Assembly (NCBI RefSeq): GCF_003334335.1
Contig: NZ_QOWQ01000231.1
Origin: Escherichia coli
GTDB taxonomy: Bacteria > Pseudomonadota > Gammaproteobacteria > Enterobacterales > Enterobacteriaceae
DNA length: 244 bases
Strand: one strand, 5' to 3'
The position numbers and the translations under genes were made by a program. The notes below the pieces were generated by a model. The model did not search any database. It worked only from the letters and a program-made list of their open reading frames with translations, and was not told the origin of the DNA. Of this stretch, positions 1-243 are shown in pieces (within the stretch, counting starts at the first letter, position 1; every line of letters starts with the position of its first letter).

Positions 1-150
1 CCGGCAGAGCCGGAAGCTGCATCCGTAGCGGAAACCGATGGTAAAGCCTTTCCTCAGCCAGCAGGTGTTGCGTTACCTGTCCGGGAAGCAGAAACACAGG
101 AAGAAATAAAAACGGAAAGTGTGGCGGTCACAGTGCAGTCACAGCCGTCG
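1..150 (+). other. Compositionally biased (Ala/Glu/Pro/Val/Thr/Gln-rich, net acidic) segment of the encoded protein; probable flexible interdomain linker or disordered region
   Basis: Codons 1-50 contain 9 Ala, 8 Glu, 7 Pro, 6 Val, 4 Thr and 4 Gln. There are 9 acidic residues (8 Glu, 1 Asp) against 3 basic (2 Lys, 1 Arg). No Cys, Trp, Tyr, Met, His or Asn occurs, and Phe, Leu and Ile occur once each. Confidence 0.5.
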
Positions 151-243
151 TTCACCAGAAAACATCCGGATGGTCTGATTTTACCATCGCTGCATGTGGC
201 TAACCGCGAGCTGCGCCGGGCAAAAGGTCAGGTTCAGAAGTGG
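1..243 (+). CDS. Internal fragment of a larger protein-coding gene, partial at both ends (no start or stop in window); product unidentified, with an acidic low-complexity linker-like segment followed by a basic segment
   Basis: Frame 1 is open for all 81 codons, while the other five frames contain stops; an 81-codon stop-free run in random sequence has roughly a 2% chance. Codon choice is largely enterobacterial-like (ccg, gcg, ctg, cag, gaa). No in-frame ATG or GTG is preceded by a plausible ribosome-binding site, so the start lies upstream of the window. Product is unknown: I do not recognise the peptide with confidence. Confidence 0.78.

Follow-up and report, generated by a model that had tools for sequence, protein, structure and literature searches.

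An internal coding piece of a ydaW-family (DUF1627) gene in a Rac-like lambdoid prophage of Escherichia coli

A 244-nucleotide stretch of Escherichia coli contig NZ_QOWQ01000231.1 (assembly GCF_003334335.1), hereafter the window, carries one reading frame that runs through it, and the question raised by this locus is to which gene the frame belongs and what its protein may do. Identity of the window to annotated chromosomal copies directly shows it to be an internal coding piece of a gene of the ydaW family (DUF1627), carried by a Rac-like lambdoid prophage. In the best overall explanation, which is given a probability of roughly 0.85, the gene would encode a modular, early accessory protein that binds nucleic acid, with an accessory role rather than an essential role in replication. 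Six-frame translation leaves only frame +1 free of stops, over nucleotides (nt) 1–243, and yields exactly the 81-residue peptide given by an initial annotation made from the letters alone. The remaining five frames contain two to four stops each, and the only closed open reading frames (ORFs) within the window are of 23 and 33 amino acids (aa). The G+C content of frame +1 is 71% at codon position 1 and 47–48% at positions 2 and 3, a pattern usual for a coding frame. Because 20,000 mononucleotide shuffles of the window kept frame +1 open in 2.9% of cases, and at least one of the six frames in 25%, an open frame of 81 codons is not significant alone; the reality of the ORF is taken to rest on homology, its length being insufficient.

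In a megablast search of complete E. coli genomes, 1,016 of 5,426 had a match to the window; seven listed chromosomes are 100% identical to it, and every listed match falls under a coding sequence (CDS) annotated “DUF1627 domain-containing protein”. In NZ_CP075652.1, the window occupies 52931–53174, in frame within a CDS at 52544–53269. In L001, as the prophage locus of E. coli STEC17-183 that contains this CDS is referred to here, the window is at 12001–12244 and the CDS at 11614–12339 on the + strand. The protein is WP_000450636.1 (241 codons, 241 aa), annotated under the same DUF1627 name. The offset between CDS and window is exactly 129 codons, and the window therefore represents codons 130–210, in agreement with the earlier view that it lies inside a longer gene. 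The flanking sequence, inspected for how it bounds frame 1, has a credible start in L001, an ATG 8 nt past a GGAGG, and a credible stop, TGA. The gene accounts for the window as follows:

Positions 1–243, + strand: ydaW-family (DUF1627, PF07789) gene, codons 130–210 of 241, based on the 100% match inside WP_000450636.1, on PF07789 and PHROG 630, and on the ratio of nonsynonymous to synonymous substitution rates (dN/dS)

The initial annotation had left the identity of the gene to a search, and searching led to Pfam DUF1627 and the YdaW family of the Rac prophage. The match to PF07789 has an i-Evalue of 1.1e-82 and a score of 275.9, with aa 76–230 of the protein aligned to the entire model (1–155/155). 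PHROG 630, a phage protein family listed as being of unknown function, is matched at E 2.4e-119 (protein 1–237 against profile 1–252 of 253); NCBIfam gave nothing meaningful. Across 34 full-length, diverse homologues, which were aligned (alignment A1), PF07789 is detected in all 34 at E ≤ 0.1 and in 33 of the 34 at E ≤ 0.001. The protein shares 66% identity over 100% of its length with the ydaW product of phage Rac-SA53, and the gene is a positional orthologue of Rac ydaW: it lies in the rightward early operon, follows ydaT/ydaU/ydaV-type genes, and is collinear in sequence. What it has in common with Rac YdaW, DUF1627 and PHROG 630 is a layout of two winged helices and a C-terminal helix, together with the position after ydaU/ydaV-type replication genes. 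The YdaW of Rac-SA53 is 253 aa long and the present allele 241 aa, with a shorter first linker. On these sequence comparisons, membership of the ydaW/DUF1627 family is considered firm.

Selection on the frame also points to a protein. By the Nei–Gojobori method, dN/dS for the whole gene is 0.32–0.44 against the homologues of Rac-SA53, vB_EcoS-673R7, PhiR5_2 and Shigella phage 75/02. Over the window codons, it is 0.20–0.38 against the three closer phage homologues; against phage 75/02, synonymous sites in these codons are saturated and the ratio is not computable. Such values indicate that the frame is under purifying selection as a protein. A chance ORF, or a window that is in truth a non-coding RNA or regulatory element, would be in keeping with the 25% of shuffles that retain an open frame, but is contradicted by the full-length annotated CDS with its ribosome-binding site, by the strong Pfam and PHROG matches, by dN/dS below 0.4, and by 156 clusters at E ≤ 0.001 in a protein homology search of 1.84 billion cluster representatives. 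RNA or non-coding homology, named in the initial annotation as a possible ground for refutation, was looked for with Rfam at permissive thresholds in the 6-kb region L001 9000–15000, and no RNA family was found on the gene. The sole Rfam hit, a Plasmodium RUF2 match of 27 bits, lies outside the gene and is attributed to chance. RNA folding shows no signal of structure in the window, the z-scores of its two strands being −0.22 and +0.11; no promoter-like sites were found in it, terminator-like sites (three, against 1.6 expected) are not in excess, and its repeats are short and at chance level. This reading is regarded as already refuted by homology, and its probability is negligible.

The entire gene is matched in 2,722 of the 5,426 complete E. 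coli genomes, at up to nine places per genome. Homologues that are approximately 80–83% identical occur in a few very large plasmid records and in twelve phage records, and the phage records with homologues include Rac-SA53 and PPompW/Stx2a-converting phages. In AFDB50, the structural neighbours come from the Enterobacterales (Escherichia, Shigella, Salmonella, Klebsiella, Serratia, Citrobacter and Hafnia) and are DUF1627 proteins. The DUF1627/YdaW family is narrow and tied to phages.

The suggestion that the window belongs to a multidomain protein of linker-plus-domain type is borne out by an AlphaFold (AF2) model built on A1, which comprises two winged helices, a disordered linker and a C-terminal module. 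The mean predicted local distance difference test (pLDDT) score is 83, with both winged helices and the C-terminal helix above 94. The segments of the protein are predicted to be:

aa 4–52: winged helix 1; pLDDT >94; L34 and W50 invariant
aa 54–65: linker 1; variable
aa 69–123: winged helix 2; pLDDT >94
aa 127–169: linker 2; pLDDT 47–56; net charge −7; top-residue frequency 0.23; 24% gaps
aa 170–192: motif segment; short helices at 170–176 and 178–181 with pLDDT 64–71; P178 85%, F180 68%, P191 88%
aa 193–240: C-terminal helix; pLDDT ~95; net charge +6; E-[IL]-R-R-x-K block with invariant R201; hydrophobic heptad seam

Mapped onto this model, the 81 codons of the window begin inside linker 2, of which they cover the greater part, take in the whole motif segment and end 18 residues into the helix:

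Positions 1–120, + strand: part of linker 2 (aa 130–169), predicted to be disordered; acidic and Pro/Glu/Ala-rich, with no secondary structure
Positions 121–189, + strand: motif segment (aa 170–192), from conservation in A1 and the short helices of the AF2 model
Positions 190–243, + strand: first 18 residues (aa 193–210) of the C-terminal helix, from the AF2 helix and conservation in A1

Residues P, E, A, Q, S, T and G make up 72% of linker 2 (aa 127–169), which is the least conserved part of the family by mean top-residue frequency. The family motif, hydrophobic-x-x-I-P-x-F-(T), is represented here by QPSFT (nt 142–156), and the codon of Pro191 lies at nt 184–186. Within the helix, Arg201 (nt 214–216) is invariant in 34/34 homologues, E199 is conserved in 79%, R202 in 71% and K204 in 68%, and the heptad a/d positions are 71% hydrophobic. 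Each winged-helix domain has a net charge of +4. Alignment and model together show a modular layout, with two predicted minimal winged helices, an acidic disordered linker and an IPxF(T) motif that leads into a long C-terminal helix, amphipathic and basic. Relatives of the C-terminal module outside the family were sought, with fold comparison including AFDB50, and none were found. For the IPxF motif, the beta-clamp consensus and the SSB-tip motif served as comparisons. A clamp-binding or SSB-tip reading was set aside, as the motif shows no conserved Q and lies inside the protein instead of at its C-terminus.

The prophage of L001 begins next to rspB, and from that end it carries genes for integrase, excisionase and exonuclease, then dicB. 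These are followed by a RelE/RelB pair with a repressor-like gene on the opposite strand, while the + strand carries genes for a cro-like regulator, YdaT, a DUF1376 (YdaU-like) initiator, a P-like helicase loader and the DUF1627 protein. On the 3′ side of the DUF1627 gene are DUF977, DUF4406, ead/Ea22, hokD, RusA, a methyltransferase, three tRNAs and lysis genes. The gene thus sits within the rightward early operon, directly after the initiator and helicase-loader genes and before a Ren-like gene. Twelve lambdoid loci were compared (L001, L002, L004–L007 and L017–L022): a helicase loader of P-like or DnaC-like type is immediately upstream in 11 of them, and a DUF977/LygF (Ren-like) gene is immediately downstream in 11/12. 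The downstream gene in L001 (12355–12747) matches PHROG 142, “Ren-like exclusion protein”, at E 3e-41, and comparison of DUF977 with lambda Ren by hhalign gives a probability of 94.5%, spanning the C-terminal ECRxSxxMxRVLA block. A single N-terminal winged helix, the other feature of the Ren family, is likewise present in this neighbour. On this profile evidence, the DUF977/LygF gene is judged a genuine homologue of lambda Ren. RefSeq labels it as DUF977 only, and no account of function was found in the literature on LygF and DUF977.

More distant members of the family are placed differently. One follows a lambda-P-type loader and precedes an Rrf2-type gene, another follows an unannotated 315-aa gene, and in a third case an exonuclease VIII gene precedes the family member, within the early region of a P2-like element. 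A short form of 117 aa, which has a single winged helix, is found in a leftward accessory region near int.

Domain number varies within the family, from one winged helix (P0182, P0232 and P0249) to three (P0200), and despite this variation every member retains an N-terminal winged helix together with the C-terminal module. In P0126 and P0146, a DUF1376 (YdaU-like) N-terminus is joined to the C-terminal part of YdaW; these are probably deletion fusions in decaying prophages. Compared with L004 and L002, the YdaW of PhiR5_2 (L005 5001–5771) is a mosaic, its first ~125 residues being of the Shigella phage 75/02 type and the remainder of the Rac type, which places a recombination breakpoint at the end of winged helix 2, just upstream of the part homologous to the window. 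Pseudogenes and mosaics are frequent in the YdaW family. The DUF1627 gene at L020 1949–2710 has an internal stop. Among neighbouring genes, the DUF977 gene at L018 2930–3346 likewise has an internal stop, and the DnaC-like loader gene at L017 120–2179 is split by an IS3 element.

The ydaW gene of E. coli K-12 (b1361, 186 aa; L016, NC_000913.3, 6753–7313) has been truncated by the Rac deletion. It matches the present gene up to nt 414 (window nt 27) and then continues into unrelated sequence adjoining rzpR, so that the deletion junction falls inside the stretch homologous to the window (window 1–27). K-12 YdaW keeps both winged helices and only the first nine residues encoded by the window; it is without the motif, the C-terminal helix and nearly all of linker 2. 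In a conjugation-based overexpression screen, ydaW is listed among the prophage genes that block the retron-Sen2 toxin RcaT (bioRxiv 10.1101/2020.06.22.160242; restated in PMC11951105). Given the truncation, a retron-blocking activity of this gene, if real, would not need the part encoded by the window.

Searches of solved structures with the single protein returned nothing significant, and the family profile returned only weak winged-helix matches (E ~1e-3). Fold searches of BFVD and AFDB50 recovered nothing beyond members of the family itself and tandem winged-helix proteins of a generic kind with no known function. For minimal winged helices of known kinds (Z-alpha of ADAR1/ZBP1/PKZ, ArsR/MarR cores, AspA, FeoC and the SelB winged helix), no membership of YdaW at family level was found by sequence. 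A conventional, sequence-specific MarR-like transcription factor, acting at phage or host promoters with the window-encoded helix as a dimerisation element, is a possible reading, though a doubtful one. It could explain the two winged-helix domains and the weak MarR/ArsR/TrmB-type matches, and K-12 YdaW is entered in catalogues of E. coli transcription factors as a MarR-type regulator not yet characterised (PMC4797297; PMC9308461). Against it, none of the 34 homologues matches PF01047 or PF12802 at E ≤ 0.001, NCBIfam scores are well below cut-offs, and the PHROG MarR match (E 1.7e-4) covers 46 residues only. In the AF2 model, the domains are of ~50–55 residues and have no flanking MarR dimerisation helices, so that by profile threshold and by structure the protein falls outside MarR. 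No target or operator is known, and a range of one to three winged helices would be unusual for an operator-specific repressor. Far less probable is that the winged helices are Z-alpha-type domains binding Z-DNA or Z-RNA. Key Z-DNA contacts of ADAR1 are N173 and Y177, and a Pro-Pro-x-Trp in the wing is a further Z-alpha feature. The family consensus has Ala at both positions aligned with Asn173 and Tyr177, and the wing Pro-Pro is absent from the family. The ADAR1 Z-alpha entry that aligns best with A1, 2l54, itself has Ala at both contact positions (sequence KKEIARVLASLAKKG); this pair mirrors the family consensus, and the resemblance therefore excludes the Z-DNA-binding residues. MarR, ArsR and SelB winged helices score nearly as well. 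With the contact residues absent, the Z-alpha reading is largely refuted and the resemblance is one of fold. Lambda Ren and the Ren-like DUF977/LygF proteins (PHROG 142) are likewise early proteins of small size with a winged helix, and their genes lie just 3′ of the one for the helicase loader. An alignment of winged helix 2 of YdaW with that of DUF977 is given by hhalign (probability 81%, E 1.2e-5, 45 columns) and by PHROG 142 (E 1.4e-5). Unlike them, YdaW has no C-terminal ECRxSxxMxRVLA block and does have a second winged helix, long linkers and a C-terminal module of its own. YdaW as a direct Ren homologue was rejected: BLASTP against lambda Ren and the DUF977 neighbour is not significant, and the profile link is confined to the winged-helix core.

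The best guess at a mechanism is that YdaW would be an early-expressed accessory protein whose winged-helix heads bind nucleic acid. The C-terminal motif and helix, half of which the window encodes, may mediate self-association or binding of a partner, and the acidic linker encoded by the window could act as a flexible tether between heads and module. Four observations favour an accessory role, regulatory or in anti-exclusion or anti-defence, over an essential one in replication: the number of domains varies, the genes are often mosaic or broken, certain members are located in accessory regions, and the next gene is Ren-like. The listing of K-12 ydaW among the retron-toxin blockers is also counted for an accessory character. 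The main alternative is a replication-coupled role, in view of the near-constant position after the helicase loader: YdaW would be an accessory of the replication module, for example at the origin or with the loader, its motif and helix contacting the loader or host DnaB. The gene lies directly 3′ of the loader gene in 11/12 lambdoid loci whatever the type of loader or initiator; lambdoid gene order is, however, conserved by module, the short form near int is far from replication genes, and in a P2-like element a distant form is found after the gene for exonuclease VIII. Lambda replicates without a YdaW homologue (order O-P-ren), and the IPxF motif, in which Q is not conserved, is a poor fit to the beta-clamp consensus. 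A role of this kind is considered unlikely. A more specific version of the favoured accessory role is similarly tentative, with the odds well against it. It would make the YdaW family a prophage anti-defence or anti-exclusion factor acting with its Ren-like neighbour, the heads engaging a nucleic-acid component of a defence system of the host or a competitor (e.g., msDNA-type ligands of retrons) and the IPxF motif and basic helix recruiting or neutralising a protein partner. The listing of K-12 ydaW as a retron-Sen2 blocker is compatible with it.

Several points nevertheless weigh against the preferred reading of YdaW as an accessory nucleic-acid-binding protein with a partner-binding or self-associating C-terminal module. 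DNA binding, oligomerisation and a partner are shown by no experiment. A linked-dimer AF2 prediction of two C-terminal modules joined by a (GGGGS)x6 linker reached a mean pLDDT of 55, by which self-association is neither supported nor excluded. A PDB profile search with the alignment of this construct matched only Gly-Ser-linker fusions, an artefact of its design. The close placement of the gene behind the helicase loader would suit a role linked to replication just as well, and the search of PADLOC-DB found only SWIM_XIII (E 0.006, 13 bits), which was treated as noise. In the retron screen, 11 blockers were re-tested individually, and the available part of the report does not state whether ydaW was included among them (bioRxiv 10.1101/2020.06.22.160242). 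Since the K-12 protein is truncated, the retron result is also silent on the part encoded by the window.

The gene and its family are already known, identical copies of the window are annotated in RefSeq, and the gene is annotated in thousands of E. coli genomes under a named family; the finding is an ordinary one. Its residual interest is that the family is very common, present in about half of complete E. coli genomes, that it has no established function, and that its place is constant, with replication genes on one side and a Ren-like exclusion gene on the other. An anti-defence or replication-coupled role, if true, would annotate a gene found in most Shiga-toxin-producing E. coli prophages and in many commensal ones.

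Other features of L001 are of minor note. The toxin-antitoxin pair, of RelE/ParE-RelB type, lies at 8333–8812, between the dicB side and the immunity genes. At 19150–20498 and 21469–23451, the DNA methyltransferase gene and the three tRNAs (Ile, Arg, Arg) are followed by a SASA-family carbohydrate esterase gene. Stx-type lambdoid phages usually have this layout around their late-gene regulatory region, but the L001 stretch contains no annotated toxin gene. Near the integrase end, the annotation marks the host gene rspA (403–1617) as a pseudogene because of an internal stop.
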